This document shows, piece after piece, positions 1,205 to 32,949 of a stretch of DNA of 64,000 nucleotides. Positions within the stretch are counted from its first letter, which is position 1. Every line of letters starts with the position of its first letter. The notes below the pieces were generated by a model. The model saw only the letters and a program-made list of their open reading frames with translations. It searched no databases and had not been told where the DNA came from. The translations under genes were made by a program, and so were the position numbers. Source of the DNA: Candidatus Heimdallarchaeota archaeon (GTDB lineage Archaea; Asgardarchaeota; Heimdallarchaeia; Hodarchaeales; Hodarchaeaceae); contig DXJL01000113.1 in the NCBI GenBank assembly GCA_019057635.1, positions 6,737 to 70,736 on the forward strand, given 5' to 3'.

Positions 1205-1753
1205 ATGCCAACTAAATTATTTGGTCGAGAAATCGAAAATCAAATAGCCTTTGTCGGTCTTGCTAATGCAGGAAAAACAACATTAGTAAAACGACTGAAA
1301 GGGCATGATGACTTAGCAACAGTCCCTACTATGGGTATGAATATAGAAACGCTAAAGATTGGTGGTATTGAAGTTATGGCTGTGGATTTAGGTGGACAGC
1401 CTACATATCCTACTAGTCTTTGGGAACCATTTGTTTCAGAAGCATCGGGAGTGGTCTTTGTTTTCGATTCAGCTGACAGAGACAAAGTTGAAACTGCAGC
1501 TAAGTGGCTTAAGAATGTTATTCAATGGGCACCAGAGGATTCTGCATTTTTATTTCTAGCAAATAAACAAGATCTTGATGTTGCAATGTCTTTAGATAAT
1601 ATAATTAAAACCCTTGAACTGGAAACTGAAATGGCAAAACGCCCGCGAACATTTGGGGTTTATCCATGCTCTGCTCTCACTGGAGAAGGCGTTGATGAAC
1701 CTTGGCGATGGATGAGCGAGAGATTTCAAAGTAAACTAGCACAAAGAAAGTAA
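1205..1753 (+). CDS. Arf/Arl-family small GTPase
   Basis: G1 GLANAGKTT, switch I TVPTMGMN, Arf-type G3 VDLGGQ, G4 NKQD and G5 CSAL are all present. Confidence 0.8.
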   Translation: MPTKLFGREIENQIAFVGLANAGKTTLVKRLKGHDDLATVPTMGMNIETLKIGGIEVMAVDLGGQPTYPTSLWEPFVSEASGVVFVFDSADRDKVETAAKWLKNVIQWAPEDSAFLFLANKQDLDVAMSLDNIIKTLELETEMAKRPRTFGVYPCSALTGEGVDEPWRWMSERFQSKLAQRK

Positions 1754-1766
1754 AGAGGTATCTTCA

Positions 1767-2330
1767 ATGAGTTTCCTTACCAAACTACGCTCGAAGTTCG
1801 CAAGAGAACGATTAACGGTGAAAATTGCCTGGTTAGGGCTTGATCATGCAGGAAAGACAACAATCGTCAAAAGAATTACCTCTGGTGAATTCGATGATAG
1901 TACATTTCGTACACTTGGTATGAATGTAGACGAGTTCAGCTCTGGTAATGTTAGATTTATATCTTGGGACATCGGTGGCCAAGAAGCCTTTCGTGAATCC
2001 CTCTGGGAGAGTTATATGGCAGGTTCAATGGGAATTGTTTATGTAATTGATTCAAATGACCGACAACGTTTTGATGAAGCTCAAGCTGAATTATGGAAGT
2101 ATGTCTTAAATAATGATAAGGTAGAAAACATCCCCATTCTGGTACTTGCAAACAAACAAGATCTTGAAAATGCTGCATCAGCTGGAGAAGTTGCTCGCTC
2201 CCTTAATCTTCACAAAGTAACCACTCATTCATATGCAATCGTACCTACTTCAGCTAAAACAGGCTTCAATATTGAAGAAGGATTAGAATGGCTTCGACAG
2301 CGAGTTACTGAAAAAATAGAAACTCTCTGA
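1767..2330 (+). CDS. Arf/Arl-family small GTPase, second tandem copy
   Basis: The N-terminal amphipathic segment MSFLTKLRSKFARE is followed by G1 GLDHAGKTT, G3 WDIGGQ, G4 NKQD and G5 TSAKTG. It lies 13 bp after the previous GTPase. Confidence 0.8.
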   Translation: MSFLTKLRSKFARERLTVKIAWLGLDHAGKTTIVKRITSGEFDDSTFRTLGMNVDEFSSGNVRFISWDIGGQEAFRESLWESYMAGSMGIVYVIDSNDRQRFDEAQAELWKYVLNNDKVENIPILVLANKQDLENAASAGEVARSLNLHKVTTHSYAIVPTSAKTGFNIEEGLEWLRQRVTEKIETL

Positions 2331-2352
2331 AAAATAAGAAAATTCTATTATA

Positions 2353-3147
2353 TTATTTTTTCATAACTTTTTTGTCCGAGACAAGATTTACTCTTTCAGT
2401 TAACGTTATGAATAGTCGATGTAACTTTGTTAGATCTAAATTCTTATTTATTCTGGAATATATACGAATAGAAGGATCTTCTGACGAATCGATAGAAATA
2501 CGTACAACAGAATCACGAATGGCGTATATTTGCTTAAGAAGTGGTTTATCTTTGAGGAAGAAGTCGCCCATACGTTCAGATGTTGCTTTCATTAAAAAGA
2601 ATTGATCTAATAATTCAGAATCAAGTATAACGTCTTTTAACTGAAAAAGTAAGTCTTGATGTTTTTTAATTTGTCCTTCTTCATGATTGGGGATAATTTG
2701 TATTTTTGTTGGTAGTTTCCCTTTTTTTGCATTTCCTTCTAACGCAATGTAGTCATTTGCTCCTGAAAACCATGAGATTATCACAGATAACATTAAATGA
2801 CGCTCTTCCAACGCAAACACGACACGAAAATCTTTGAATGGAATTTTAGATGATTTTTTATATTTAGGAAATAATAGGCCACCATTGGAAGTTATTTGAT
2901 CAGTTACTAAATCATCAAATTCATTAGAAAATATTTCAAGAAGAGCATCCTTTGATACATTGATAATTTTATGATTCTTCCTCCTACCAGACCACAACAG
3001 GTAAAAAGTAAAAAATAGAACTAATCCTGGTCCTAAAAATATTACCATATAATCTAGAAGCCCGTATTGCTCAGATTGAAGAAAGAATTGTCCAATGAAA
3101 AGAAATTTTTCCATAAAAGGGTCGTATATTGCCATTTTGAATCTCAA
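2353..3147 (-). CDS. Hypothetical protein with an N-terminal membrane anchor
   Basis: A hydrophobic helix VIFLGPGLVLFFTFYLLW lies near the N-terminus. No motif was recognised. The ORF is long with a clean frame. Confidence 0.4.
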   Translation of the reverse strand: MRFKMAIYDPFMEKFLFIGQFFLQSEQYGLLDYMVIFLGPGLVLFFTFYLLWSGRRKNHKIINVSKDALLEIFSNEFDDLVTDQITSNGGLLFPKYKKSSKIPFKDFRVVFALEERHLMLSVIISWFSGANDYIALEGNAKKGKLPTKIQIIPNHEEGQIKKHQDLLFQLKDVILDSELLDQFFLMKATSERMGDFFLKDKPLLKQIYAIRDSVVRISIDSSEDPSIRIYSRINKNLDLTKLHRLFITLTERVNLVSDKKVMKK

Positions 3148-3228
3148 AATGACCTTCTGAATCGATGTTTAATATTATTTGCTTCGATCTGATTTCGAAT
3201 TTTTTAATTTCAGATTTATTCTTAGTTC

Positions 3229-3801
3229 TCAAGATATATCTAGGTAGCTGGCTATTTCTCTATATTGAAAAATATCACTTTGAGAATTTCCAACGACTTG
3301 AAAAAACTTATATTTGGCGATTCCATCTTCACCAACGTCATTAGGATCAACTACCAGTGCTACTGAAAGAGGTTGAACTAATTGAAAAGAGTATACATGA
3401 GTAGTAATATCAGTTTGTGATAAAAATAATCCATATCCAGGATGTGAATGCCACCAACCCACACAGAATTCTGGACCCGATAATTGATCAAAAACTTGAA
3501 AATCCTCATCAGAAAAAGATACTGAATATTCATCTCCCTGGGTTACATAAATTCCCTTTGATATCATTATTTCTTTTGAGCGAACTTCAATCCCGCTGAG
3601 CAAGCCAATAGCCTCTTTTGGTTTGGCTTCGATAGAATAATTGGTAATTTCTATAATTGTTTGCTGTGATATGGTAACAGAAATTGTCTCTAAACTCAAT
3701 CGAGACATCTCGTTGTTGGCCTGATCTGAATGTAGGCCGTCAATTGATTGGTCTGTTTCGTCCTCATTATCAGAATTTTCAGGGGGATCTTTATTTGTCA
3801 T
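3229..3801 (-). CDS. JAB1/MPN/Mov34 (JAMM) metalloprotease, a putative deubiquitinase of the Rpn11/CSN5 type
   Basis: The JAMM motif is intact: upstream Glu (EAIGLLSG) then HSHPGYGLFLSQTD, which is H-x-H-x7-S-x2-D. There is an acidic N-terminal extension. Confidence 0.85.
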   Translation of the reverse strand: MTNKDPPENSDNEDETDQSIDGLHSDQANNEMSRLSLETISVTISQQTIIEITNYSIEAKPKEAIGLLSGIEVRSKEIMISKGIYVTQGDEYSVSFSDEDFQVFDQLSGPEFCVGWWHSHPGYGLFLSQTDITTHVYSFQLVQPLSVALVVDPNDVGEDGIAKYKFFQVVGNSQSDIFQYREIASYLDIS

Positions 3802-3896
3802 TAGAATATGATTCCTTAGCTATTCAGTAATTCCAATTCCACCCAGATTCAACTTCATTAGTAATACCCCAGCAGACCTAATTGAAACAATAGGAA

Positions 3897-4448
3897 CTAA
3901 CTCGTTCCATGCTCTTTTGTCCATTTAACAGCTTTCTCCCAGAAATCATTGAAATTGGACTGCATGGATTTTCCAGCCTCTGGATTGAATGGATCGCCAG
4001 GATCAACGAGGTATTCTGGAAATTCAGAATCTCCTGAACTCTGATAGACATCAAGCATCATTTCGATATGCTCAAATACACTAGGTAGAGTTATAGTCTT
4101 TTTCCATCCACCAAGTTCACCTATATTGTTCCAATTGATTAAACTAAGACAAACATTAGAACCCCATTTCCAACGAGTTTCACCTATAGCAATATTGGGA
4201 TGCCAAATTGGTGTAATAAAATTAACAATTGGAGGTTTGAATGGATATTCAGGTGGTAAATCAACGGTGATTTTCCATTCCCCGTTTTCATACGGAGTGC
4301 CTTCTTTCCCTTTTATTGTAGCAGAGTAGTGATGAAGATCATTATCCACTATTAGCCACTTTATGGTAGCACTTTTTGGGGGATAAATCTTTAGCATTCG
4401 CTTAAATTCTTCCCTTAATCGTCTGGAATGTAGATCAGACATAAGCAA
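3897..4448 (-). CDS. Ubiquitin-conjugating enzyme E2 (UBC fold)
   Basis: PPEYPFKPP, the HPN motif (IWHPNI) and the catalytic Cys context NVCLSLIN are present. Confidence 0.85.
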   Translation of the reverse strand: MLMSDLHSRRLREEFKRMLKIYPPKSATIKWLIVDNDLHHYSATIKGKEGTPYENGEWKITVDLPPEYPFKPPIVNFITPIWHPNIAIGETRWKWGSNVCLSLINWNNIGELGGWKKTITLPSVFEHIEMMLDVYQSSGDSEFPEYLVDPGDPFNPEAGKSMQSNFNDFWEKAVKWTKEHGTS

Positions 4449-4763
4449 TCTCTCCTAGTTCATTAATCAGGTGGTATCCATTAACCTATAAACTTACTCC
4501 ATCAATTTTATTTAAAGCTGCTGATTGTCGGGTTAGAAGGAAAGCCATTATGAGCTAGTTTTTTAAGGTCAGTTATCAGAATGAACCTGCAGTAATTCAA
4601 TATTCTGGAAGAAAATAGCGAAATTTCTTGTTATATTGGAACACAAGAGGCTTAGATCATTACTAAATGTGTGATTAAAGACCTCCCTTGTGCGCTAGTG
4701 ATATTTTGGAAACTCGTATGATTTATCTCTTTCAGAAAAAGTAGTTGAAAATGAGGTAGAATT

Positions 4764-5552
4764 ATGACTGATATCGAGACAGAAGTTGCCCAGTGTAATG
4801 GATGTGGTGCTCCTCTATTAGGAAACCCTTCTTCTCTTCGTCCCGTTCATTGTGAATATTGTGATTTGACAAACTATCTCAGGAAATCACAGGGAATAGC
4901 TCCTGATGAAAGTTCAGTAAACGAGGAAGTGGAATCTGAACATTATTATCTTTTATATCAAGAATCCCAGAAAATACTGGAAAATTTTCCTGGGGAATTA
5001 GCGGGAGAGGAAGTAGGAAAAATTCGTATTAAAATGCAAGTTGGACAGTACGCATTTCCATTATTGATAGTGCTTGATGATTTACCAGAAAAACCCTTTA
5101 TCGATGGTCCAAATGTTCTTCGAGAAGTTATCAACTGTGAGATTAATGACTTAAATACTATGAAAGATTGGATACCTGGAACAAGTTCGGTATTAGATGT
5201 CTTAGAAGAAATCTACCAGATATCTGAAAATCAACTTCCTCAAAAAATGGAAGGCCCTTCAACGACAAGTGAGTCAAAAAGTACGATTAAAGAAAAAAAT
5301 CCCCTCATACGACAGATCTTGGAAAGTTATGATGCCACGCCAACAAGAAAAGAAATTAAAATTAACTTTTATGCACAAACAGGAGAAGTTATTCCATTCA
5401 CAATCAAAAGAAAAAAGAACTATCCGATAGGTCTCGAAAGTGAAGTTCTTTCGAGGTATCCACTTATCCGCGGACCTTTAGAGGATTATGCGAAAGGTCG
5501 TATTGATCTTATTACTGTGTTGGCCGAAATTGAACGCTTATTCTATGTGTAG
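4764..5552 (+). CDS. N-terminal zinc ribbon plus an E2-variant (UEV/RWD-like) domain protein; a candidate ESCRT-I Vps23/TSG101-like ubiquitin binder
   Basis: CNGCG...CEYCD forms a zinc ribbon. The central region LPEKPFIDGPNV resembles the E2 YPFKPP...HPN region but lacks the HPN motif and the active-site context. Confidence 0.35.
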   Translation: MTDIETEVAQCNGCGAPLLGNPSSLRPVHCEYCDLTNYLRKSQGIAPDESSVNEEVESEHYYLLYQESQKILENFPGELAGEEVGKIRIKMQVGQYAFPLLIVLDDLPEKPFIDGPNVLREVINCEINDLNTMKDWIPGTSSVLDVLEEIYQISENQLPQKMEGPSTTSESKSTIKEKNPLIRQILESYDATPTRKEIKINFYAQTGEVIPFTIKRKKNYPIGLESEVLSRYPLIRGPLEDYAKGRIDLITVLAEIERLFYV

Positions 5553-5574
5553 AGACAATCAGAGGTAAAAAATT

Positions 5575-5904
5575 ATGAATAATCGAAAAAAAGATGTTGT
5601 CTGGGACTCAAACGTTAATTCCCAAGGAACAACATCGGATGGTATTGAACGTATGATTAAAGTCCGTTTTAAGGACCCACAACTTCCACCAGATCAAAAC
5701 ATCCGTGAAAAATATATTAACATAAATGGTACAGTTTTTCAAGCAATTACAGCAGCACGTGACGCATTTAATATTCCTGAAGTTGTACCAATCGCACTAC
5801 TGTTTAAAGGTCGAAGAATGAATCCATCAAACAACCTTGTTTCGTACAATATTGAAGATAACGCCCTTCTAATGATAGTACCTGATCAGATAAAAGGGGG
5901 GTAA
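5575..5904 (+). CDS. Ubiquitin-like beta-grasp modifier with a C-terminal Gly-Gly
   Basis: The 109-aa protein ends ...PDQIKGG immediately before the stop codon. Its size and hydrophobic pattern fit a beta-grasp fold. A GAGGT RBS lies 8 nt upstream, and the gene sits directly upstream of E1. Confidence 0.7.
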   Translation: MNNRKKDVVWDSNVNSQGTTSDGIERMIKVRFKDPQLPPDQNIREKYININGTVFQAITAARDAFNIPEVVPIALLFKGRRMNPSNNLVSYNIEDNALLMIVPDQIKGG

Positions 5905-5939
5905 TCTCCTCCTATTTCTTCTTATTAAGGGAATTATCA

Positions 5940-7178
5940 ATGAACTCACATCTCCCTTATTCAAAATTTGATCGTCAAGAGCGTCTTTCGATTTGGGACC
6001 AGAGTCTCATTGAAAAAAGTTGTGTGTTAATAATAGGAATAGGAGGAACTGGGGGAGAAGTGGCCAAGAATTTATCTTTACTTGGGGTGGGAAAATTGAT
6101 TTTGGTAGATATGGATACAATCGAATTTTCAAACTTAAACCGCCAACTACTATTTTCAAAAGCAGATATTGGTAAGAATAAAGCAAAGATAGCTAAGAAA
6201 GTAATTAAAAAAAGGTATAATTCCACTTTGAAAATTGAGGCGTATAGTGATCCCATTCAATCACTGCCTTACAGAATTTTTGAGGAAGCTGACATAATTG
6301 CTGGGTGTGTTGATAACTTTCTCGCACGACAATTTATTAATGAAATTGTTATAGAATTATGTTTACCGTTAATCGATTCTGCAACCGATGGTTATTTTGG
6401 CCAGGTACAAAGTGTAAATCCAAGGAAAAACGCTTGTCTGGCTTGCGATTTTCCACCTCCTCCAGAAGAGACTCGCCTTCTATCTGCACCCTGTACTCTT
6501 GTTGGAACTCCAAGAATCAAAGAACATTGTGCATGGAAGGCCCTTTATGAATTTCATACTATGAATGATCGGGAACCTGATGAAAATTCCCCCGATGATG
6601 TTCAGGAGATTACAAACCTAGCAAATAAATTCGCTACCGATCACCAATTCCCACTCTTTGATACCAAAGAGATTATTCAACTTGTATTATACCACGTACC
6701 TAGTCTAATTACTGTTAATGCGGTAACTAGTGGAATTCAATCGCAAGAAATCATAAAAACTCTATTTATCAACAAAATGAAGCTTTTTAAAAAAAAGGAT
6801 CAGAAGGAATTCAAATCTCTTATCCGTGCACAACGATTCAGAATTCCTGATTTAACTATTTATTCTGCACTAACAGGAAATATTAGTTCTTTTAATCTTA
6901 TCAATGATCCAGATTGTTTGGTGTGTGGTAATTCTTCAATTTACCACCAAACTCCAGTAACAATAAATGTAAACCCAAAGTTGAAATGCAAAACGATTTT
7001 TACAATATTAAAGCGTAGATTCAAGAAAAATTATATAGGTTTTAGAGGAAATTTCATTATTCCAGCGGAAGCATTAATAGAAAATATTCTTCAAGACGGG
7101 GATAGAATAACCGTTAGTTCACTAGATGATGATAAAGAAAAAAGAATAAGAATTAAATTTAAAAAGAAGAAGGGTTAA
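5940..7178 (+). CDS. E1-like ubiquitin-activating enzyme (ThiF/MoeB/UBA fold)
   Basis: The nucleotide-binding GIGGTGGEVAKNL and the motif LVDMDTIEFSNLNRQ are present. There are CxxC pairs (CLACDF), a Cys-containing segment APCTLVGTP, and a roughly 150-aa C-terminal extension. Confidence 0.85.
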   Translation: MNSHLPYSKFDRQERLSIWDQSLIEKSCVLIIGIGGTGGEVAKNLSLLGVGKLILVDMDTIEFSNLNRQLLFSKADIGKNKAKIAKKVIKKRYNSTLKIEAYSDPIQSLPYRIFEEADIIAGCVDNFLARQFINEIVIELCLPLIDSATDGYFGQVQSVNPRKNACLACDFPPPPEETRLLSAPCTLVGTPRIKEHCAWKALYEFHTMNDREPDENSPDDVQEITNLANKFATDHQFPLFDTKEIIQLVLYHVPSLITVNAVTSGIQSQEIIKTLFINKMKLFKKKDQKEFKSLIRAQRFRIPDLTIYSALTGNISSFNLINDPDCLVCGNSSIYHQTPVTINVNPKLKCKTIFTILKRRFKKNYIGFRGNFIIPAEALIENILQDGDRITVSSLDDDKEKRIRIKFKKKKG

Positions 7179-7507
7179 TCTTCATCAGTGGAAGGGTAAA
7201 AAATACGTACCTTTCTTCTAAGCTTTGGTTTTATCGGTTGAATGGATGGATTAAGATAAGGGTCTTTCAGTCCAAAATCTTGAATTTTTTCTTTCGTAAA
7301 TTTGCTGTAAATTTGACTAGATATTCGATCACGAGAAGTTTGACGGGATTGGGGTTTTTTGGCACTAAATTTTCTTGGTGAAGGTACAGTTAATCGAATG
7401 GTCGTTCGTTTTCCACATTTAGGGCAATACCACGCACCTGTGACAGGTTGTTCATTTGAACGAGGAACATATCCACAAAATTGACATTTAAATTCAGATT
7501 CTCTCAT
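7175..7507 (-). CDS. Small zinc-ribbon protein with a basic tail
   Basis: CQFCG...CPKCG is followed by a Lys/Arg-rich C-terminus. It overlaps the E1 stop by 4 bp. Confidence 0.35.
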   Translation of the reverse strand: MRESEFKCQFCGYVPRSNEQPVTGAWYCPKCGKRTTIRLTVPSPRKFSAKKPQSRQTSRDRISSQIYSKFTKEKIQDFGLKDPYLNPSIQPIKPKLRRKVRIFYPSTDED

Positions 7508-7657
7508 TTGGTAACATCACACAAGATAATTACGTTGAAATTGGTTAAGATTTCCTTATACATGAAATAATAGTACACGTAATAATATTTGAATTAAATA
7601 TTATTAAGGTGAATAATATAAAAATGTCTCCCCTTTCATCGATTTAGCGTCTCTTGG

Positions 7658-9418
7658 TTGTGCATCATGTTAAGACGAAAGAAGAAGAAATGGCTAGAAG
7701 CAGTTTCTACGGCACAATCACCAATACGGATAGAGGATTTTTCTTCTTCTACTGATAAAATGAATGTTGTCGCCTTTTTATATGAAAAAATCCAACAACA
7801 ACAATTGGATGGGCTTTTAGACTATAATCATATCTATTTCATTCCGAAATCACATATCTACAAAAAAATTCAACAATTTCTAGACGCACAAGGAATGGTT
7901 GATATATGTGAACTAATAGACCTAATGAATTTACCAGGTAATTTGCTTGAGCCTATTATCCATGATTACGTGCAAGAAATAGACGGTTTTTTTGATTTAA
8001 TCAAACGAAAATTCTTTACACGATCAGGAGCTATCTCATTCATTACTAAACTTCTTGGTAACACTCCCACGCATGATCTTGAATATTTACTAAATCAGAT
8101 ATACTGGACAGATCACCAATTAGAAGCTGTATTAGACTTAATGGCGCAAAAAGATCTATTCAGGGGTTATATTGACCCTATCAAACAACGTTTATACAAC
8201 TTCAAATCCCTTCGTTTTTCCCTTACTACTCCGAATGAAGGATCGATGAGAGCCCTATCCCGATTCATAAATGCATCATTCCAAATTTCTTCAGAAGTTT
8301 CTTTAATAGACATTTCTCGCCTTACAACGCTACCACAGGATGATCCATTGAAATTTCTTGAACTCTTTGAGAATCGTTTGAGTTATATTAGTTCTAAGGA
8401 TAGAGATTATATATACTCTACAATCGATATTGTTTCGCAAATTATATGGGATATTTATGTGTATGAAGAGATACCTTTGGATTTCTGGGTAGCCAGGTTT
8501 GATCTTGGGTTTGAAGCCTTATCTGATCTATTATTAGTATTAAATGAAAGTTTTCGTGGTAGCTTATCAAAAAAGTTTCTAAAAGGTATTTCTTTGATTC
8601 ATTGGTTCGAACAAGGAATTGATATTGAAGGATTAGCTACAAAAATAAATATAGACGTCTTGAGATTGTTAAAAGAGATAACAACTATAGCCCTTCGTTT
8701 AGAACTTCGTTTGGTGGCAGGTGATTCAATAAATCCGTTTCTAGTGAAAGGAATCAGAGATTTAGAGATATTTTGTCAAATTGATACTTCCTCATATTCC
8801 AATCCTTCAGTATACTTTGAGTGCCAAAATTGTAGGAGGGTAATGTGCTCAAACTGCAGAAAAATTGATAGCACCCATGAATGTCCGTTTTGTGGAAATA
8901 TTTCTGCGTTTATTATCGATCTACCACGGAATTGTCCTACTTGCCAATTGACCTATGCTTATTCATATAATCTTGAAACAACTGAGGAGTGCTATTTCTG
9001 TGAACAAGGTCCATTGAAATCTGGATGGTTTACTTCAGAGCAAAAACCCTTGAGTCTTACCGCTACTGAAAATCAATTTGTTAATTTCATCCAGAATCAT
9101 CATTCTCCAATAATTCCTTTACAACAAATTATTGATTTTGTTAGTCAATCATCAGAAGAAGTCATAAAAATACTAGAAAAACTCATTACTCACAAAATCA
9201 TTGCGGGAACAATTAGCATTCAAAAATTGCAATTGAAAATTAAAAAAGCTTATGTTTCGTTTGAGTGTGTGGTTTGTAAATGGGTTAAAACCGATAAAAA
9301 GAAGTTTATCTGTAATTTGTGTAACGGAGAAGTCTGTGAAAATTGTTATCAAGGGATGGAGTCGGTTGGAATGGTTGATTGTCCAGAATGTGGATCATCT
9401 CTTGAGTTAGTAGAATAA
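7658..9418 (+). CDS. Large alpha-helical protein with a C-terminal cluster of zinc-ribbon/treble-clef modules; a candidate E3-like or ubiquitin-binding component
   Basis: The C-terminal 200 aa contain at least five CxxC pairs: CQNC-CSNC-CPFC, CPTC-CYFC and CVVC-x10-CNLC-CENC-CPEC. The C-x2-C-x10-C-x2-C spacing matches the RanBP2/NZF type. Confidence 0.4.
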   Translation: MCIMLRRKKKKWLEAVSTAQSPIRIEDFSSSTDKMNVVAFLYEKIQQQQLDGLLDYNHIYFIPKSHIYKKIQQFLDAQGMVDICELIDLMNLPGNLLEPIIHDYVQEIDGFFDLIKRKFFTRSGAISFITKLLGNTPTHDLEYLLNQIYWTDHQLEAVLDLMAQKDLFRGYIDPIKQRLYNFKSLRFSLTTPNEGSMRALSRFINASFQISSEVSLIDISRLTTLPQDDPLKFLELFENRLSYISSKDRDYIYSTIDIVSQIIWDIYVYEEIPLDFWVARFDLGFEALSDLLLVLNESFRGSLSKKFLKGISLIHWFEQGIDIEGLATKINIDVLRLLKEITTIALRLELRLVAGDSINPFLVKGIRDLEIFCQIDTSSYSNPSVYFECQNCRRVMCSNCRKIDSTHECPFCGNISAFIIDLPRNCPTCQLTYAYSYNLETTEECYFCEQGPLKSGWFTSEQKPLSLTATENQFVNFIQNHHSPIIPLQQIIDFVSQSSEEVIKILEKLITHKIIAGTISIQKLQLKIKKAYVSFECVVCKWVKTDKKKFICNLCNGEVCENCYQGMESVGMVDCPECGSSLELVE

Positions 9419-9426
9419 ATTAGTTA

Positions 9427-10320
9427 TTATGACGATTTTTCGGCTTTTATTTTTGCGAGTTTTGATGAATATTTATCGGCTATTTCTTTATATCGTTTTT
9501 CAGAGATTTTACCTCCTAAAAACATCTCATCAGCCTGTTCGAGCATTAATTCGAATTTTTTAATTTTTTCTGAAACCTCATCAAATTTATTTCGCTCTTC
9601 TGCGAGTTCCTGTTGAGTTTCAATAATTTGCTTTTCAATCTCATACGTAAGTAAGGTTTCGTACTCTTCAGGCACTTTAAATCCACCAATATCTAATCCT
9701 ACTAGTTCTAGGCCCCATCGAGAGCTTTCAGGACCTAATTCAGATCTTGTTTGAATTTCTAAGCTTCTTCTGTCTTTTAATAACTCAGGTACAGTGTAAC
9801 GAGTCATAACATGTTTAACAGCTGCTATCACCGTCTGTTTCACCCAATTTTTAAGCTCATTTCCACTATAATACTGTTTATGGGAGACTACGTTCATGAT
9901 AAAATTCCTTGGATTCACAATCCGCATCCGAGAAATTCCCCAACATCCCACCATAACATTGTCTGAGGTGTAAATACCAGGCGTTCCCCATTTAATGATA
10001 AATTCACGTTTTGTAACCCATATAATTTCACTTCCAGGATGCTTCGCTGTTTTTTCCAATTGATAAATTCCACTCCCAGCAACTCCAACTAGCACCCCTG
10101 ACTGTAACAACACGGCATTTTCTGGTTCTTTTACAATAAAGCCGTCAATTTTTCTAAAGTTATCATTTTCTTCTGCTTTCACTCTATGAATTAACGATTC
10201 ACCAAGTGAATCATCAAATTTTGAGCTTAGAATCGCTTTTCCCTTGAATTTCTTGGTACCTATGTGAATTGTATCCCCTATTTTACGGAATAGTCCACCA
10301 AATTTGTCTGTTTCCGCCAT
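9427..10320 (-). CDS. SPFH/band-7 (stomatin/prohibitin-like) domain protein with a C-terminal coiled coil
   Basis: TSDNVMVGCWGISRMRIVNPRNF and NELKNWVKQTVIAAVKHVMTRYTVPELLKDRRSLEI follow the band-7 core pattern. The C-terminus is Lys/Glu-rich and helical. Confidence 0.5.
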   Translation of the reverse strand: MAETDKFGGLFRKIGDTIHIGTKKFKGKAILSSKFDDSLGESLIHRVKAEENDNFRKIDGFIVKEPENAVLLQSGVLVGVAGSGIYQLEKTAKHPGSEIIWVTKREFIIKWGTPGIYTSDNVMVGCWGISRMRIVNPRNFIMNVVSHKQYYSGNELKNWVKQTVIAAVKHVMTRYTVPELLKDRRSLEIQTRSELGPESSRWGLELVGLDIGGFKVPEEYETLLTYEIEKQIIETQQELAEERNKFDEVSEKIKKFELMLEQADEMFLGGKISEKRYKEIADKYSSKLAKIKAEKSS

Positions 10321-10329
10321 CGCTTCTAC

Positions 10330-11331
10330 CTACCAATCTTCATCTCCATATAACCCTGGAAAGTAATACTGATCTCCTGAATCAAGTGATGACACTTTTC
10401 GAGCAACTTTTTGATTGACAAGACTATCTAAGACCCTCATTACTCGTTGTTGATCCCATTTAGTATGAATCATAACTTCCTCAAATGTTACATAGCCTTT
10501 ATCTATTGCTAGATTAAATATGTTCCGGGCATCTTTTCCAAGAGCTACTGGTGTAAACTCGACAATTTTTATGCCAGATTGTTTGGAAACTCCTTCAATT
10601 AACGATTGTTTAGTTAGTTGTTTACAGGCCTTTTCTAAATCTTTCAATGAAAACTTGATATCTGGAACTTGATTTTTCAGAGAAGTATACAAGTTTGCCA
10701 TTGAAATATAACCACCTGAACTTGCTCTAAGAGTTTTTCCTTGTTCAAGGATTAAATCAGCAAGATTGTCAACAAATTTCCCTTTCCCAAATATTTTTGG
10801 CTTTTTTGTTGCATCTAACGCGGTTATTGTTAGTGTACGCCCTTCTTTTCGGAGTAACTCTCTCTCTAATTGCTGAATGCGGGAATCATATTTCTTCTGT
10901 AAATTCTTAATTCCCTCGGTTGATACTGGAGCTCCGTTAGCCAACTTATTTTGAACTTGAACTACCTCTTCTAATCGCGTTATCTGTTCACGAAGATCTA
11001 ACAACTCACTGCGGAGATCTAATTCTTTATTCCCAAATTCAAGATCATCAATTAATAGTTTAGACCGTTCTGTTATTTGGTCACAAAGAATAGTTGCCAG
11101 TAGCTGCGCAACACGGATTTCCCCACTTTCCTTTAAATTGGCCATTTTATTATCAGAGTAGAGTATTATATCAGGCACAGTTTCGCTTAAATACCTAATC
11201 TCTTCAAATTGTGTATAAAATTTAATTACTAGATCTGATATGTGTTTAGCTTTCATTGCAGCAGTATTACTTAATTGATTTAGCGCATTACTTGCAGTTT
11301 GAAATTTTTCTCTCAAAATAAGGGTCACCAC
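10330..11331 (-). CDS. ESCRT-II subunit Vps22/EAP30 homologue (tandem winged helix with an N-terminal coiled coil)
   Basis: SGGYISMANLYTSLKNQ...SLKDLEKACKQL...IKIVEF...GYVTFEEV...WDQQRVMRVLDSLV...YYFPGLY aligns with the EAP30/Vps22 pattern GG-I-L-EL...DL-RA-KKL...GYVT...W...RA-VL-L...YW-P-LF. Confidence 0.75.
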   Translation of the reverse strand: MVTLILREKFQTASNALNQLSNTAAMKAKHISDLVIKFYTQFEEIRYLSETVPDIILYSDNKMANLKESGEIRVAQLLATILCDQITERSKLLIDDLEFGNKELDLRSELLDLREQITRLEEVVQVQNKLANGAPVSTEGIKNLQKKYDSRIQQLERELLRKEGRTLTITALDATKKPKIFGKGKFVDNLADLILEQGKTLRASSGGYISMANLYTSLKNQVPDIKFSLKDLEKACKQLTKQSLIEGVSKQSGIKIVEFTPVALGKDARNIFNLAIDKGYVTFEEVMIHTKWDQQRVMRVLDSLVNQKVARKVSSLDSGDQYYFPGLYGDEDW

Positions 11332-15777: not shown

Positions 15778-16302
15778 TTGGAAAAAGACAACCAGGAGAT
15801 TGCTAGCTTGATAGATCCACGAAGGTTTGACAGTGTACTCAGTAAAATCATAAAAAGTGAACCCGGTATCCGAAAAATTATTCTAGTCGACCGGACTGGT
15901 CTTACGATCGCTCATGTTTCCAAGTTTAGTTATGTATCTGTTGATGTTGATGGCATTGGAGCAATTGCTTCAGCTGTATTTATGGCATCAGCAGAACAAG
16001 GATCTAATCTGACAATTGGCGGATTGGATATTGTCACTTCAGAATTCGATACTGGTAAAATATTCGCAAGCGCTTGTGGCCGAGGAATTTTGACAATAAT
16101 CTCAGATGCTGAGGTTAATATCGGAATGATCCGCTTACTCATGAGAAAGGCTAATGAGGAACTTAGCTCAATCCTTGATGAGTTTTTAGCTGGACAACCA
16201 TCTCGAGCCTTCTCAGGAATTGCCTCTGAAGCACCTGAAGTTCGTACTGGGCTCGAAAAAGATGAACTTGAAGCCGCGCTACGAGAGCTTGAAAAATTCT
16301 AA
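15778..16302 (+). CDS. Roadblock/LC7 (MglB-like) domain protein
   Basis: IRKIILVDRTGLTIAHV...DGIGAIASAVFMASAEQGSNLTIGGLDIV follows the Robl/LC7 alpha-beta-alpha pattern. Confidence 0.7.
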   Translation: MEKDNQEIASLIDPRRFDSVLSKIIKSEPGIRKIILVDRTGLTIAHVSKFSYVSVDVDGIGAIASAVFMASAEQGSNLTIGGLDIVTSEFDTGKIFASACGRGILTIISDAEVNIGMIRLLMRKANEELSSILDEFLAGQPSRAFSGIASEAPEVRTGLEKDELEAALRELEKF

Positions 16303-16344
16303 TCTAGTTTCTTATCCTCCTAGTCAGTGAAGGAGCCAAATTGA

Positions 16345-16926
16345 TTGCGAAAAGACGCAGAAGGTCGTCATAGATTTAAAATAGTATTTTATGGTCCCTC
16401 TCTCTGTGGAAAAACAACAACTCTTGGTTGGCTTTATCATAAGGTTGATGGTTTAGAAAAGGGGAAATTTACTCAACTAGCTGATCCACATGGACGCACG
16501 CTTTTTTTTGATTTTGCACCCATGCAAGCTACTACAGGAGTGGTTTTTGACGTTTACACTACAGCAGGACAGGAAAGACATAAACACCAGCGTAAAATAG
16601 TTATTCAGGGGGTAGATGGCATCTTATTTGTTGTTGATTCTTCATCAGATCAGCTTCAAGAAAATATTGCTTCTTTCGAGGAGCTTACAACTCATTTGGG
16701 GGAAGATTTAGGCACCACAATTCCTTTAGTTATTGCTTTGAACAAACGAGATGCTGAGGATGCACTACCAAGATCAGAGCTAATTGAAAAATTAAAATTA
16801 TCCAATTATCCAATTTATGAAACTGTGGCTACTACGGGTATTGGGATAAAGCGTGCTTTCCAATCATTAGCCCGTGAAATATTAATGATACAATTATACG
16901 GAACTAAGACATCTCAGAATAATTAG
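16345..16926 (+). CDS. Ras-superfamily small GTPase (MglA/Rag-like)
   Basis: G1 GPSLCGKTT, G3-like VYTTAGQER (T in place of D, as in MglA) and G4 NKRD are present. Roadblock genes flank it. Confidence 0.75.
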   Translation: MRKDAEGRHRFKIVFYGPSLCGKTTTLGWLYHKVDGLEKGKFTQLADPHGRTLFFDFAPMQATTGVVFDVYTTAGQERHKHQRKIVIQGVDGILFVVDSSSDQLQENIASFEELTTHLGEDLGTTIPLVIALNKRDAEDALPRSELIEKLKLSNYPIYETVATTGIGIKRAFQSLAREILMIQLYGTKTSQNN

Positions 16927-17198
16927 CTTTTTTTCTGAATAATTACAGTCCATCCTCTAGTTTCTATTACCTCAGAGTTATTGTTTAATATAGCTCTCAA
17001 GGCTGAAACTGCTTCTTGACGTGAATTGAAAGGAGAATTTTTTAGAAACTTTATTTTAATGGTTTTATCCTTTTTTAATCGGTTATTAAGTTCATTAAAA
17101 AAGGAATCAGATAAACCATTTTTTCCTACTTGTAAACTTGGCGACTCTGCTCTGATATTCCGTACGTTTGGTTGATGTAACTTGGACATGTATTTCAA
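16923..17198 (-). CDS. YhbY/CRM-domain RNA-binding protein
   Basis: LQVGKNGLSDSFFNELNNRLKKDKTIKIKFLKNSPFNSRQEA matches the YhbY/CRS1 fold signature (IGK-G-...ELIKVK-L). Confidence 0.65.
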   Translation of the reverse strand: MKYMSKLHQPNVRNIRAESPSLQVGKNGLSDSFFNELNNRLKKDKTIKIKFLKNSPFNSRQEAVSALRAILNNNSEVIETRGWTVIIQKKS

Positions 17199-17442
17199 AA
17201 CCTCTTACTTTGGAGCGTTTTGTTAAGTTAATCTTATAGTTTTGCTATCTAAACCTATAGTTCGATCTAATTTGTTATGATACAATAGAAGGAATTTCTC
17301 CTCGTAATATCTACATATTAGGATCTTATATTACTTTGAGTAGAAAGAATGATGTAAGTAGGTTTATTCTCCTTGTACACCTTCTCATTCGGAAAAATCT
17401 CGGAATTAGAAATATATTTATAGGAGATAAGCTTAAATTCAC

Positions 17443-17895
17443 ATGTCTAAGCAAAGATATGTGCGGAAATTTGTTTACAAGGGTGTAAGAATGTACATTC
17501 CCGATACTGATGCAGATCTACAAATGCATAAAGAAATAGTCGAAGTCTTGGAAGCATTTGTTAGTAAATTGCCAGCTATAGACTTTGCTAGCGTTGTTAG
17601 TCTTGAAGGACTTCCCATTTCCTCTTGGCCTCCTAAACTTCCAGGTGATTTGGATGATGTGCGAATAGCCGCAATGACTGCGGCAATTCTTAGTTTAGGC
17701 GAGAGAGCTGTCATGGAAACGGGGAAAGGAGAAATGACACGGATTCTTGTCGAAGGAAACGATGGTTACCTTATTTCAGTTCAATCTGGTAGTAAAGCAG
17801 TATTAACTGCTTCAGCAAACAGATCGGTGAAATTGGGCTTAATTTTTCTTGATATGAAACAGGCTGCAAAGAAAGTCGGTGAAATACTGGGTTAG
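17443..17895 (+). CDS. Roadblock/LC7 domain protein, second copy
   Basis: The pattern FASVVSLEGLPISS...AAMTAAILSLGERA...ILVEGNDGYLIS is Robl/LC7-like. Confidence 0.6.
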   Translation: MSKQRYVRKFVYKGVRMYIPDTDADLQMHKEIVEVLEAFVSKLPAIDFASVVSLEGLPISSWPPKLPGDLDDVRIAAMTAAILSLGERAVMETGKGEMTRILVEGNDGYLISVQSGSKAVLTASANRSVKLGLIFLDMKQAAKKVGEILG

Positions 17896-30313: not shown

Positions 30314-31987
30314 CTAGCGTAGAATATAGCGTACAAGTTGCTTAATATCTAAGGGAATCCCTTCTTTATTCCCTAATATGGTATTAGTGTAAGATCCGAT
30401 TAGATCTGACCATTCCCATCTATCCAATTGGTATAGTTCTTCTTCTGGGGATTCTATCACTTTGATGATCCGTCTATCAACATAATCATTCAATCGTCTT
30501 TGTAAATCCAATCTCTTTTCTGCAGGAATCCCTAGGATTTGGCTAATCTTTTCCTTTGATAGTGGTTGGTTGGTTCCCAGAAGAAAGAGGATCCAATTAT
30601 CAGGAGACGCTAACAACGCTTTTACCACAGGACGGAGGTCTATATCCATCCCAACTGAAACACCACCTGCTTTCATCGTGATTTCTTTGGTAACTTTGTA
30701 GCTTAGCTCTTTACCCCCATCACCTTGCTCTTTTAAATTCACAAGGCGTTCTTTTAACAGATTAACTTCCTCACGAAGATTTGCAATGTCAGATGTTATT
30801 ACCATACTGTCAGAGCTTTCTTCTAAAATTTCAGGTGAAACTGTTCCCCCTTCTCTCAACAGATTCTTTAATTTTTCATTTTCTTGTCTTGTATCGATTA
30901 AAATTCTTTCAAATTCTAATAATTTCTCAGATAAGTCTTCAGCGAGTCGTTCATCAATTGCCCTGGACCAAGAAAGTTTTTCGTGAGTACTTTGTGTTGT
31001 ACCTACAAGCTCTACTTCCAAATCCTCTTTGATTGCTTCTAATTCCTTTATACGAGCTTCTTGGCTCAATATTTTGTCTTTCAGCCTGTTTACTATCGAT
31101 GCAGTATTTAAAATGACCTTGTTATCATCCACATTTGGAATTCGATAAACGGGTACTACACTTCCCCTATCCCAAATAGATGCGGTTTCATACCTAACCC
31201 CCAACTTCTCAATCAACTTAGCAATTTCACGAGTTTCATCATTATATCTGAACATGAAAAGATTTTCCTCATCACCCTCAAACCTGTACAATCGAGAAAA
31301 TTTCAACCAGATTGTGACAAAATCCAAAACATCTTGTTCATCTTTACATTTGGAGACAGAAAGGATTATTTGGGGAAAACTAGCTTGGAATTCTCCAGTA
31401 AACGCTTTAACAACCGCAGAGCAAAGCTGCACGGGAATTTTAACATAAAAACCTCGTTGATTCTGTGCAAGTTCGCCATCAGGACACAAGTTCACATCAA
31501 AAACAGAATCAAATGTTTCGATAAAACTCTCAATTTTTCCTCTTTGATCAGTTTGGTAGGTACCGGTCTGAAATACATTCTTGGATAGTGTAAATAATCC
31601 GAGAAGCTTAGCTAAAGAATTGCTCTTAGTTTTTACGGGAAGTTTTATTGGAAGCTGGCTCTTTTTATTCCCTATACTAGTGACTGTGAAAGAGGTCATA
31701 AAAAGTTCGCGTTCATTTTCAACTAATATGCGAAGTGTTGACAGAGGAATGGTCATTTTTGGATTTGAACGGTATCGTGACCATTGTGTTCGACTAACAA
31801 CTGGACCCAACGCTTTTTGCATTCTACTATGTTGGAATACGAATCGACGCCCAGCTAATGAAAGATTTACTCTGGCCTCGTCTGGAAAGTTCTTTAATGA
31901 CAACCATTCCTCGATTTCATGATCCATATCAAGTCTTGATCGTCTCTTAAAGACTTCTTCATGTAATTCTAATTTTTCGGACTCCAA
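30314..31987 (-). CDS. Hypothetical 557-aa protein with a central coiled coil and a C-terminal winged-helix-like domain
   Basis: The ORF is long. The C-terminal segment is wH-like (ISQILGIPAEKRLDLQRRLNDYVDRRIIKV). No catalytic motif was recognised. Confidence 0.3.
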   Translation of the reverse strand: MESEKLELHEEVFKRRSRLDMDHEIEEWLSLKNFPDEARVNLSLAGRRFVFQHSRMQKALGPVVSRTQWSRYRSNPKMTIPLSTLRILVENERELFMTSFTVTSIGNKKSQLPIKLPVKTKSNSLAKLLGLFTLSKNVFQTGTYQTDQRGKIESFIETFDSVFDVNLCPDGELAQNQRGFYVKIPVQLCSAVVKAFTGEFQASFPQIILSVSKCKDEQDVLDFVTIWLKFSRLYRFEGDEENLFMFRYNDETREIAKLIEKLGVRYETASIWDRGSVVPVYRIPNVDDNKVILNTASIVNRLKDKILSQEARIKELEAIKEDLEVELVGTTQSTHEKLSWSRAIDERLAEDLSEKLLEFERILIDTRQENEKLKNLLREGGTVSPEILEESSDSMVITSDIANLREEVNLLKERLVNLKEQGDGGKELSYKVTKEITMKAGGVSVGMDIDLRPVVKALLASPDNWILFLLGTNQPLSKEKISQILGIPAEKRLDLQRRLNDYVDRRIIKVIESPEEELYQLDRWEWSDLIGSYTNTILGNKEGIPLDIKQLVRYILR

Positions 31988-32172: not shown

Positions 32173-32949
32173 ATGATGATTGATTTTTACTTGGCACTAT
32201 TAGATCCCATTTTTGACTTATTCTTGCTCATCTGGATATCATTAAATGATATCCTTATCGATCTTGTTGAGACTTTTGGAGTTTGGGGGCTTATATTCGC
32301 CATGGTTTTTCAATCCGTTGTTGCTCCAATTATATCTGAAGCAGTACTGACTGCAGCAGGATTTGGGTTTTATAATGCCTATGGGAACGAAGGTTTATTT
32401 TTAGCTTTTATTGGAGGGTTTATTGGTTCTCTCCTTGGAGCAGTAATCGCATTTTATATTGCACGGGGAGTACAATCATTATTGAGAAAGAAGATAGTTG
32501 ATGTTTACGGAACTAGAAAAGAGGACTCAGATTCTGAACTTAATCAAAGGAATCCACGATTAACACGATTAGCCAATTTCCTTGCTCGGTTTATTGATGA
32601 AGATTCCGAATACTTTTTTGATTTAATTGAAAATCATGGTTTTCTATTTGTATTAATTGGACGCCTAGCTCCATTTATCCCCTTTGATGCTGTTTCTTAT
32701 GGGGCTGGCTTTACTCGGATAAGTTTCTGGAATTATTTTATCCCAACAATTATTGGAACGATTCCCAGGGTCTTATTTTATATTTATTTGGGTGCAGAGT
32801 TAGTTTCATGGGCTGAAGAAGATTTAAATATTTTCTTTCTAATCCTTTTAGCCTTTGCCCTAATAATATTCAGTTTATATATGATGAGTATGCGTTTCCT
32901 AAAAAATAGGATCGGAAGAAAACGGGATATTGATAAATCTCATAACTAA
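32173..32949 (+). CDS. DedA/VTT-domain (Tvp38/TMEM41/VMP1-like) membrane protein
   Basis: It is a multi-TM protein. GRLAPFIPFDAVSYGAGFTRISFWNYF matches the VTT/DedA re-entrant loop signature. Confidence 0.5.
   Translation: MMIDFYLALLDPIFDLFLLIWISLNDILIDLVETFGVWGLIFAMVFQSVVAPIISEAVLTAAGFGFYNAYGNEGLFLAFIGGFIGSLLGAVIAFYIARGVQSLLRKKIVDVYGTRKEDSDSELNQRNPRLTRLANFLARFIDEDSEYFFDLIENHGFLFVLIGRLAPFIPFDAVSYGAGFTRISFWNYFIPTIIGTIPRVLFYIYLGAELVSWAEEDLNIFFLILLAFALIIFSLYMMSMRFLKNRIGRKRDIDKSHN

Follow-up and report, generated by a model that had tools for sequence, protein, structure and literature searches.

Which protein-tagging pathway is encoded by a compact group of five genes in the genome of an Asgard archaeon, and how complete is it? 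The genes occupy positions 3229-7178 of a 64,000-nucleotide stretch (hereafter the window) of contig DXJL01000113.1 from Candidatus Heimdallarchaeota archaeon (assembly GCA_019057635.1, order Hodarchaeales). A first-pass annotation had read them as a full eukaryote-type toolkit, comprising a ubiquitin-like protein (Ubl), its activating enzyme (E1) and conjugating enzyme (E2), a JAMM deubiquitinase and a fifth protein (gene 5) of the ubiquitin E2 variant (UEV) type. The listing of open reading frames (ORFs) places all five exactly where that annotation had put them, with the JAMM and E2 genes on the minus strand, divergent from gene 5, Ubl and E1 on the plus strand (lengths in amino acids, aa; Pfam E-values in brackets):

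3229-3801, minus strand: JAMM/MPN+ metalloprotease, 190 aa (JAB, 8.4e-10)
3897-4448, minus strand: E2 with a UBC fold, 183 aa (UQ_con, 2.3e-24)
4764-5552, plus strand: gene 5, a zinc ribbon followed by tandem UBC/RWD domains, 262 aa (no Pfam family)
5575-5904, plus strand: Ubl, 109 aa, ending ...IKGG-stop (Rad60-SLD, 1.6e-5)
5940-7178, plus strand: E1, 412 aa (ThiF, 7.7e-50)

E-values of this size lie well outside what chance would give. We consider it very likely that these genes form a eukaryote-style cassette of the working type for conjugating and deconjugating a ubiquitin-like protein, and that they represent the Hodarchaeales version of the Asgard Ubl-E1-E2-JAMM operon. The domain identities, the catalytic residues and the gene order come directly from sequence, structural model and synteny. 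All five genes are real, but they are not the whole toolkit: the unit is larger, since a candidate for the ligase (E3) and several trafficking genes stand in the same conserved block. The Asgard origin of the DNA, which had been proposed from its gene content, is borne out by the window proteins, which cluster at 90% identity with Heimdallarchaeota/Hodarchaeales proteins. By exact-sequence look-up, these clusters hold PWI49551-PWI49556 of 'Candidatus Heimdallarchaeota archaeon B3_Heim' together with many proteins from metagenome-assembled genomes (MAGs) named 'Hodarchaeales archaeon', and all listed members are named hypothetical.

The modifier, its enzymes and gene 5

The product of 5940-7178 is, as had been proposed, a ThiF/E1-fold enzyme, with a strong match to PF00899, an ATP motif and a catalytic Cys185 (6492-6494). 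It consists of an adenylation domain (residues ~8-160), a Cys loop, a helical insert (194-296), a zinc site formed by CxxC166 and CxxC326, and a C-terminal ubiquitin-fold domain (UFD, 338-408; 6951-7163). The motifs G33xGGxG, NRQ67 and D125 are present, and G33xGGxG, D57, N65, R68, Q69, K81, D125, Cys185 and both CxxC pairs are invariant across 43 E1 homologues. In the phmmer alignment the segment 'PCTLVGTP' lies opposite 'GCTIRNTP', the catalytic-Cys segment of SAE2, so that Cys185 is aligned with the SAE2 catalytic Cys, which we take to be residue 173. Grouping with the sulfur-transfer enzymes MoeB and ThiF had been named as the outcome that would speak against an E1. Instead, phmmer against PDB sequences ranks SAE2 (3.8e-32, 115 bits), UBA1 (2.4e-31, 112 bits) and UBA3 (1.5e-27, 100 bits) above ThiF (3e-21, 79 bits), UBA5 (64 bits) and MoeB (2e-16, 63 bits), and Foldseek also favours UBA3 and SAE2.

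An AlphaFold2 (AF2) model of the E1, built on the homologue alignment, has a predicted local distance difference test score (pLDDT) of 85.4. It contains a disordered, low-pLDDT Cys loop at 172-188, closing strands at 305-318 that carry the second CxxC, and a C-terminus of b-a-b-b-a-b-b topology at 340-407 (pLDDT ~90). Searched against the PDB with Foldseek, the whole model finds UBA3 first (2e-27, ~435 columns against chains of 429-432 residues) and SAE2 next; for the model, the match to UBA3 is full-length, UFD included. The earlier guess that the C-terminal extension is a ubiquitin-fold domain therefore fits the model, while its length of 'roughly 150 aa' does not, as the region is really the end of the adenylation domain followed by a ~70-aa beta-grasp at 338-408. 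Its use in recruiting E2 is predicted from the model. Two E1 relatives (P0203 and P0204) carry precomputed annotations for both PF00240 and PF00899, and C-terminal UBL domains in archaeal E1-like proteins have already been catalogued (Hennell James et al. 2017, PMC5654768). Unlike canonical E1s with their paired adenylation domains, the enzyme contains one ThiF domain, and the 64-kb window encodes no further E1-like ORF; for these reasons it probably acts as a homodimer, as do ThiF, MoeB and UBA5.

The other two enzymes also carry the active sites that had been ascribed to them. The E2 has a UBC fold (PF00179, 86 bits against a cutoff of 27) with intact HPN83-85 (4194-4202) and Cys100 (4149-4151), preceded by YPFKPP68. 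Its HPN and Cys align with those of Ubc1 and UBE2D2, and its best relatives are UBE2K/Ubc1 at 1e-16. Two 7-aa insertions flank the active-site Cys. [quoted passage not shown] The protease shows the full E...HxH...S..D site, namely E63 (3613-3615), H118-S-H120 and S128-x-x-D131 (the last four catalytic residues within 3409-3450), residue for residue with Rpn11. It scores 38.9 bits with JAB (PF01398) against a cutoff of 22.5 and 4.5e-6 with Prok-JAB, and its closest structures are Rpn11 (1.1e-11) and the Caldiarchaeum Rpn11-like enzyme 6fjv (7.7e-10), followed by CSN5 and AMSH. Its N-terminal tail of ~40 aa is acidic.

The modifier ends exactly in Gly-Gly before the stop codon (5899-5904), as annotated, and this terminus is invariant in the orthologues from three counterpart loci (L001, L002 and L004, see below). 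Its conserved core comprises residues 27-109 (5653-5901), that is 83 aa from Met27, and is near-invariant within its cluster. Among Pfam models Rad60-SLD, a SUMO-type Ubl family, reaches 25.1 bits against a cutoff of 23.8. When compared by hhalign with ubiquitin, NEDD8 and SUMO, residues 73-108 align with ubiquitin 41-76 (79% probability, P 1.6e-5); in the alignment as read, Leu76 lies opposite ubiquitin Ile44 and Arg80 opposite Lys48. The N-terminal extension of about 25 aa (5575-5652) that had been noticed earlier is probably real, because its motif, KKDV[IV]WDS...[GS]IE[KR]M, is retained in L001, L002 and L004, whose E1 is only 58-60% identical, and because a GAGGT Shine-Dalgarno-like site precedes the first ATG. 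Some database versions of the Ubl are 83 aa long and start at M27. At its 3' end the gene has seven consecutive G (aaa ggg ggg taa, 5893-5904). Some database relatives (P0016, P0018 and P0021) run beyond GG or GA into tails of ~10 aa (KGGKSPPFSSH, KGANDSRSLYKQI), for which pro-forms, variation between strains and homopolymer sequencing errors are possible explanations.

The UEV-type reading of gene 5 held in part. Its zinc ribbon is confirmed, as is a UBC-fold variant without HPN or a conserved catalytic Cys, but the 'E2-like region' turns out to be two tandem domains that stand outside the UEV/Vps23 and Mms2 families. The zinc ribbon covers residues 9-37 (CxxC11 and CxxC30), domain A 54-161 (4923-5246) and domain B 180-261 (5301-5546); the AF2 model (pLDDT 77) has a four-Cys zinc ribbon, a disordered linker and two a-bbbb-aaa domains. 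An internal duplication relating domain A to domain B is weakly supported (P 0.019). Neither a Vps23 stalk nor a steadiness box is present in gene 5, the C-terminal half being a second UBC/RWD-like domain and not a coiled coil. The family comprises 66 homologues down to 48% identity, none of them with a Pfam domain, and those with names nearly all bear the labels Hodarchaeales/Hodarchaeota or Heimdallarchaeota, a few being labelled Hermod- or Promethearchaeota.

With E-values up to 1 admitted, none of 36 members of this family matched a UEV, UQ_con or RWD model of Pfam, the family profile found nothing significant among PDB sequences, and its direct comparison with an E2 alignment gave an hhalign probability of 0.2%. 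The link to UBC emerged only after distant relatives were added from a hidden Markov model search of 1.84 billion representative proteins, which returned 25 gene 5 relatives, among them multi-domain proteins with the labels Freyrarchaeum, Helarchaeota, Lokiarchaeia and Promethearchaeota. In these multi-domain proteins the domain-A profile and Pfam UQ_con hit one and the same stretch. With the distant relatives added, domain A aligns to the E2 profile over 98 columns (90% probability, P 1.7e-6), the segment from HPN to Cys being deleted in domain A. Gene 5 is a non-catalytic, lineage-specific UBC variant, UEV-like in the broad sense. The distant relatives from Asgard MAGs (P0281, P0288 and P0291-P0298) are 340-630 aa long and carry two to three tandem UBC/RWD-like domains, some of them together with a UQ_con-scoring domain or a Prok-RING finger; they look like an undescribed Asgard family of multi-UBC-fold proteins.

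The conserved block and its distribution

For conservation, 185,579 species genomes were scanned with the E1 alignment, and the window proteins were compared with all ORFs of 80 loci by phmmer. The E2 and JAMM partners are clearly conserved in related genomes, a point on which the first-pass annotation had made its reading depend. The conserved unit is a block of 12 genes (1205-11331) in the order Arf, Arf, membrane protein, JAMM, E2, gene 5, Ubl, E1, zinc-ribbon protein, 586-aa protein, SPFH and EAP30. The genes flanking the five described above are:

1205-1753 and 1767-2330, plus strand: a tandem pair of small GTPases of the Arf family, at one end of the conserved block (Arf, 2.2e-37 and 1.6e-48)
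2353-3147, minus strand: ~264-aa protein with a hydrophobic N-terminal segment, a membrane anchor as predicted from sequence (no Pfam family)
7175-7507, minus strand: small zinc-ribbon protein, 110 aa, with a basic, probably disordered tail (weak zinc-ribbon matches only)
7658-9418, plus strand: E3 candidate, 586 aa (583 aa from the ATG), with UFL1-like winged-helix repeats and an 8-Cys finger
9427-10320, minus strand: SPFH/Band-7 protein, in the conserved block (Band_7, 1.6e-16)
10330-11331, minus strand: EAP30 protein (Vps22/Vps36-like, ESCRT-II type) with an N-terminal extension of ~110 aa (EAP30, 1.4e-10, 41.7 bits against 26.8)

The full gene order is identical in L001, L002 and L004, which are MAGs labelled Hermod-, Hod- and Heimdallarchaeota with a Hodarchaeales-type block; the L003 contig starts inside E1, and its part from E1 to EAP30 keeps the same order. 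Further afield, E1, E2 and JAMM are adjacent in L005, L006 and L008-L011 (Loki/Promethearchaeia, Borrarchaeum, Thorarchaeota and unclassified labels), and the L007 contig ends after E1-E2. E2 and E1 also neighbour each other in L012-L017 (Aigarchaeota and Jordarchaeia); a JAMM gene lies nearby in L012, and a ubiquitin of 77-82 aa ending in GG is encoded upstream in L013-L017. Gene 5 and the 586-aa finger protein are absent within 10 kb of the locus in the non-Hodarchaeales lineages. In the Promethearchaeum MAG (L005:9538-13888) the genes for Ubl, E1, E2 and JAMM are followed by one for a multi-pass membrane protein of 417 aa that has a RING-like finger at its C-terminus, and the Ubl, of 117 aa with an acidic N-terminal extension, ends ...STAGI and not GG. 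This arrangement suggests processing of that Ubl by JAMM and a membrane-bound E3.

Within the block, gene 5, Ubl and E1 are predicted to be co-transcribed as one operon, with gaps of 22 nt between gene 5 and Ubl and 35 nt between Ubl and E1, and with Shine-Dalgarno-like sites present. The E2 and the 586-aa protein probably start at an ATG located 2-3 codons downstream of the listed TTG; the database copy of the latter is 583 aa long. The ~264-aa protein is encoded on the strand of the JAMM gene and downstream of it, with counterparts (~1e-110) at the same position in L001, L002 and L004. The gene for the 110-aa zinc-ribbon protein is convergent with E1, the two stop codons overlapping by 4 bp (7175-7178), and keeps its position in L001-L004. 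The EAP30 gene is syntenic in L001-L004.

On its sequence features, the 586-aa protein is likely to be the missing E3 of the cascade. It combines UFL1-like winged-helix repeats (~24-172), a 10-Cys zinc cluster (389-448), a PCI-like winged helix (~467-527) and a C-terminal cross-brace finger (537-578; 9266-9391) whose eight Cys are invariant. The family profile matches UFL1 structures at 3.7e-6 to 1.8e-5, and the best of 32 family members reaches 3e-6 with the UFL1 model PF09743. Across these 32 members, Pfam reports PCI in 23, E3_UFM1_ligase in 16 and C1_2 in 16, with RING models in few. The best PDB matches of the C-terminal finger are RINGs (MAT1, 4e-4; TRIM32, 1.3e-3; NOT4, 0.03). The protein is syntenic in L001-L004 and was found only there among the loci compared. 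The UFL1 InterPro signature IPR018611 has served before as a marker for Asgard 'E3' proteins (Hatano et al. 2022).

The Hodarchaeales genome that holds L004 (CP070760.1) also holds a second locus (L026:4161-17872) with the order E2, RING-H2, Arf, KaiC-like, ubiquitin, E1, Yip1-like, Rab-like, UEV-Vps23, Vps28, a protein with zinc ribbon, PH, coiled coil and steadiness box, Vps22 and ESCRT-III, a cluster described for Hodarchaeia by Lu et al. The locus in the window is paralogous to this ESCRT-linked ubiquitin cluster and is not that cluster. Because its E1 insert and its E2 insertions are absent from the L026 enzymes, we assign it to the pan-Asgard operon, of which it is the Hodarchaeales form. 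Likewise, the EAP30 protein of the block matches the L026 Vps22 at only 1e-17 and is a paralogue of the Vps22 in the canonical ubiquitin-ESCRT cluster. One Hodarchaeales genome, CP070760, thus carries two paralogous ubiquitin or Ubl systems.

The 64-kb window itself contains no second copy of E1, E2 or ubiquitin and no canonical ubiquitin-ESCRT cluster, and Rfam and tRNA scans of the window returned nothing relevant to the locus. The rest is ordinary chromosome (aIF2 subunits, GINS, PolB, fibrillarin/Nop, TBP, TFB, Kae1, H+-PPase and others), including eukaryote-like genes typical of Asgard archaea such as Arf GTPases, roadblock proteins, TRAP-beta, Get3 and PAC2. At 15778-17895 the gene for a small Ras/Arf-like GTPase stands between two Roadblock/LC7 (MglB/Ragulator-like) genes, an Asgard-typical module of GTPase plus regulator that is unrelated to the Ubl locus. 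Eukaryote-like genes for membrane biogenesis encode a Get3/ArsA ATPase (40154-41104), a TRAP-beta homologue (41973-42578) and a VTT/Tvp38-domain protein (32173-32949). A PAC2-family protein, similar to proteasome assembly chaperone 2 (50765-51520, 9.3e-31), is the sole proteasome-related gene seen in the window and lies ~40 kb from the Ubl locus. Two minus-strand ORFs, 30314-31987 (557 aa) and 43172-43861 (229 aa), have no Pfam match at E <= 0.001.

A proposed pathway and its alternatives

From these domains and residues we infer, as follows, how the cascade would proceed step by step, which protein would act as the ligase, what gene 5 would bind and where the targets would lie. The Ubl would be made with a free Gly-Gly end and would therefore require no C-terminal processing. 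The E1, probably a homodimer, would adenylate this end and take up the Ubl as a thioester on Cys185 in the flexible loop, while its C-terminal UFD would recruit the E2. The Ubl would then be passed to Cys100 of the E2 and from there to lysines of the targets, a transfer in which the UFL1-like winged-helix protein encoded nearby, with its RING/PHD-like finger, probably assists, and the Rpn11-type JAMM protease would remove it again. By analogy with UEV proteins, the most likely role of gene 5 is non-covalent binding of the Ubl or the E2, in which it would serve as reader or cofactor. Since the Arf-like GTPases, the membrane-anchored protein, the SPFH protein and the Vps22 paralogue are constant members of the block, the targets may be associated with membranes or trafficking, a tentative assignment to which we give somewhat less than an even chance.

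Several observations weigh against this picture. The Ubl falls below the cutoff of the ubiquitin family itself (PF00240, 1e-3, 19.3 bits against 25.4), and its N-terminal half has no ubiquitin similarity detectable by Pfam or by hhalign against ubiquitin, NEDD8 and SUMO. A beta-grasp fold for the 109-aa protein is a prediction from its sequence. The 586-aa protein scores 19 bits with PF09743 (E3_UFM1_ligase), below the cutoff of 23.2. Ligands 3-4 of its finger are spaced CxxC in the alignment as read, which is PHD/DC1-like and not the Cx(H/C) of RINGs, so that E2 binding by the finger is uncertain and its E3 role is put forward conditionally. The assignment of targets, finally, is based on gene neighbourhood.

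The same enzymology could serve another end, with the Ubl as a tag for proteasomal degradation and the JAMM protease acting at the proteasome. Such a role would suit the closest solved relatives of the JAMM protein, which are proteasomal Rpn11 and the Caldiarchaeum Rpn11-like enzyme, and the PAC2 homologue at 50765-51520 could be counted in its favour. However, the 12-gene block includes no proteasome or AAA-unfoldase gene, its invariant neighbours are the Arf GTPases, the SPFH protein, the Vps22 paralogue and the membrane protein, and Arg80 takes the place of ubiquitin K48 in the alignment as read. We consider a degradative tag unlikely and tentatively prefer membrane or trafficking targets.

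A narrower alternative concerns gene 5, which could be an active second E2 of the non-canonical kind without HPN, like UFC1 and Atg10, working through Cys125. This residue follows strand 4, is conserved in 62/66 aligned positions, and sits in a context ('C-x-I-x-x-L...W-x-P') that recalls the 'C-L-D-I-L...W-S-P' of E2s. Yet position 125 is occupied by N, S, F or R in four full-length orthologues, and distant members lack the Cys; hhalign sets the E2 Cys opposite Leu119 and leaves Cys125 in an insert, and there is no HPN or equivalent. Cys125 was accordingly rejected as a UFC1-like catalytic Cys, and we regard an enzymatic gene 5 as very improbable compared with a non-catalytic binder.

Could the modifier instead be a sulfur carrier of the SAMP, Urm1, MoaD or ThiS type, on which a MoeB/ThiF-type enzyme would form a thiocarboxylate used to thiolate cofactors or tRNA? 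ThiF/MoeB NCBIfam models do match the E1 adenylation domain (1e-35 to 1e-22), and relatives of the E1 elsewhere appear in public annotation as 'ThiF family adenylyltransferase'. None of these models reaches its cutoff, however (ThiF, 120 against 275 bits; SAMP-activating E1, 86.7 against 450), and eukaryotic E1s outscore ThiF and MoeB by 35-50 bits. The enzyme has a catalytic-Cys loop and a UFD, and the block contains neither a rhodanese domain nor a Moa or Thi biosynthesis gene. As had been argued from the presence of an E2, the locus is not of the SAMP/Urm1 type, with a canonical E2 and a JAMM protease adjoining and conserved, and we give a sulfur-carrier function hardly any credence.

A role in anti-virus defence, as in the bacterial operons of the Bil or CBASS-Cap2/Cap3 type, is equally far-fetched. 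Such operons have the same four-gene content (Ubl, E1, E2 and JAB protease), PADLOC gives weak matches to JAB and E1-E2 models, and the bacterial fused E2-E1 BubCD appears in the PDB search (3e-10). The PADLOC matches, however, are to generic adenylation and JAB cores (3.5e-16 and 1.2e-6) and far weaker than those to eukaryotic E1 and Rpn11, and E2, Ubl and gene 5 have no PADLOC match at all. Housekeeping genes surround the block, and its synteny extends over Hodarchaeales genera, in contrast to a mobile defence island.

A conjugation cassette of the pan-Asgard type therefore remains the reading we favour. Archaeal ubiquitin-like systems have been in print since 2011-2017 (Nunoura 2011, as cited in later work; PMC5654768; PMC9192718; PMC10936438; bioRxiv 10.1101/2023.07.25.550441). 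The published record already covers operons of this type, the UBL domain at the E1 C-terminus, an Rpn11-like protease and a link with ESCRT and trafficking genes, so the locus introduces no new principle. The B3_Heim genome is plotted in Figure 1C of Hatano et al. 2022. In the searchable literature we found no description of the Hodarchaeales-specific accessory proteins, of the exact 12-gene block or of an explicit two-system picture.

The interest of the locus lies in these accessory proteins, in the presence of two paralogous ubiquitin or Ubl systems in one genome, and in the invariant linkage to Arf, SPFH and Vps22-paralogue genes. Asgard ubiquitin systems are the best available model for the origin of eukaryotic protein tagging, and Hodarchaeales are the proposed closest archaeal relatives of eukaryotes (PMC10307638); the locus exemplifies such a system from that order in a clean, compact and seemingly intact form. 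With a Ubl ending in mature GG, a UFD-bearing E1, a candidate E3 and a candidate reader in one block, it also offers a convenient set for reconstitution in vitro. A more speculative proposal, which we hold to be rather doubtful, is that Hodarchaeales run two separate ubiquitin-like pathways, the 12-gene block being a membrane-associated one without a described eukaryotic or archaeal equivalent, and that pathway diversification and the UFL1-type scaffold predate eukaryogenesis. On this proposal the ESCRT-linked ubiquitin cluster would be one pathway, and the other would have a divergent, N-extended Ubl of its own, the more eukaryote-like E1 with its UFD, an E2 with insertions, a lineage-specific reader combining a zinc ribbon with tandem UEV domains, and a UFL1-like winged-helix ligase scaffold fused to a cross-brace finger.

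Comparison with known systems

Among eukaryotic proteins, the UEV family (Tsg101/Vps23, Mms2/Uev1) shares with gene 5 a UBC fold without a catalytic Cys. Unlike these proteins and the tandem RWD/UEV scaffolds (FANCL DRWD, BRE/BRCC45, Knl1), gene 5 has an N-terminal zinc ribbon and no Pfam UEV, UQ_con or RWD match. UBA3 and SAE2/UBA2 have their parts in the same order as the window E1, namely adenylation domain, catalytic-Cys region, zinc site and C-terminal UFD. The window E1 differs in being a single 412-aa chain, with no NAE1/SAE1-type partner gene in the window, and in the reduction of its Cys domain to a helical insert of ~100 aa.

Homologous archaeal cascades that proceed as proposed here have been reconstituted in vitro, that of Helarchaeia (bioRxiv 10.1101/2023.07.25.550441) and, including deubiquitylation, that of Caldiarchaeum subterraneum (Aigarchaeota; PMC5654768). 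The Caldiarchaeum operon resembles the window locus in its ubiquitin, its E1-like protein with a C-terminal UBL domain, its E2-like protein and an adjoining, divergent Rpn11/JAMM gene (PMC5654768), and the Aigarchaeota loci L012-L016 match the window E1 at 30-32%. In contrast to the window gene, which ends at GG, the Caldiarchaeum ubiquitin is a pro-form whose 9-aa tail is cut by Rpn11. The Caldiarchaeum E3 is a small RING finger protein, the E2 lacks the two insertions and there is no tandem-UBC protein.

The canonical ubiquitin-ESCRT cluster of Heimdall/Hodarchaeia (PMC9192718; bioRxiv 10.1101/2023.07.25.550441), represented by L026, resembles the window locus in a GG-ended ubiquitin adjoining E1, with E2, Arf/Rab-like GTPases and Vps22 (EAP30) nearby. 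The differences lie in the proteins themselves. The L026 ubiquitin is 77 aa long and has no extension, and its alignment with the window Ubl is confined to residues 73-101 of the latter (40% identity). Its E1, of 334 aa, has no helical insert, scores equally with ThiF and UBA1, and is 39% identical to the window E1 over the first 184 residues only, while its E2, of 151 aa, has no insertions and carries HVN instead of HPN. L026 further has RING-H2, UEV-Vps23, Vps28, the zinc-ribbon/PH/coiled-coil/steadiness-box protein and ESCRT-III, with no JAMM gene in the stretch read.

The closest counterpart is the pan-Asgard Ubl-E1-E2-JAMM operon (L005-L011), which was reportedly first described in Lokiarchaeota in 2015 and in other Asgard lineages in 2017. 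The window locus departs from it in the divergent orientation of JAMM and E2 relative to gene 5, Ubl and E1, and in a Ubl that ends in mature GG where that of L005 ends ...AGI. Hodarchaeales add gene 5 and the UFL1-like finger protein, whereas L005 has a transmembrane RING protein instead. In other respects the two agree: the E1 is ~410 aa long in both and has the same helical insert and C-terminal domain, being 36-39% identical over 320-350 residues, the pair of 7-aa insertions is common to the E2s, a Rpn11-like JAMM gene adjoins, and the L005 Ubl is likewise extended at its N-terminus.

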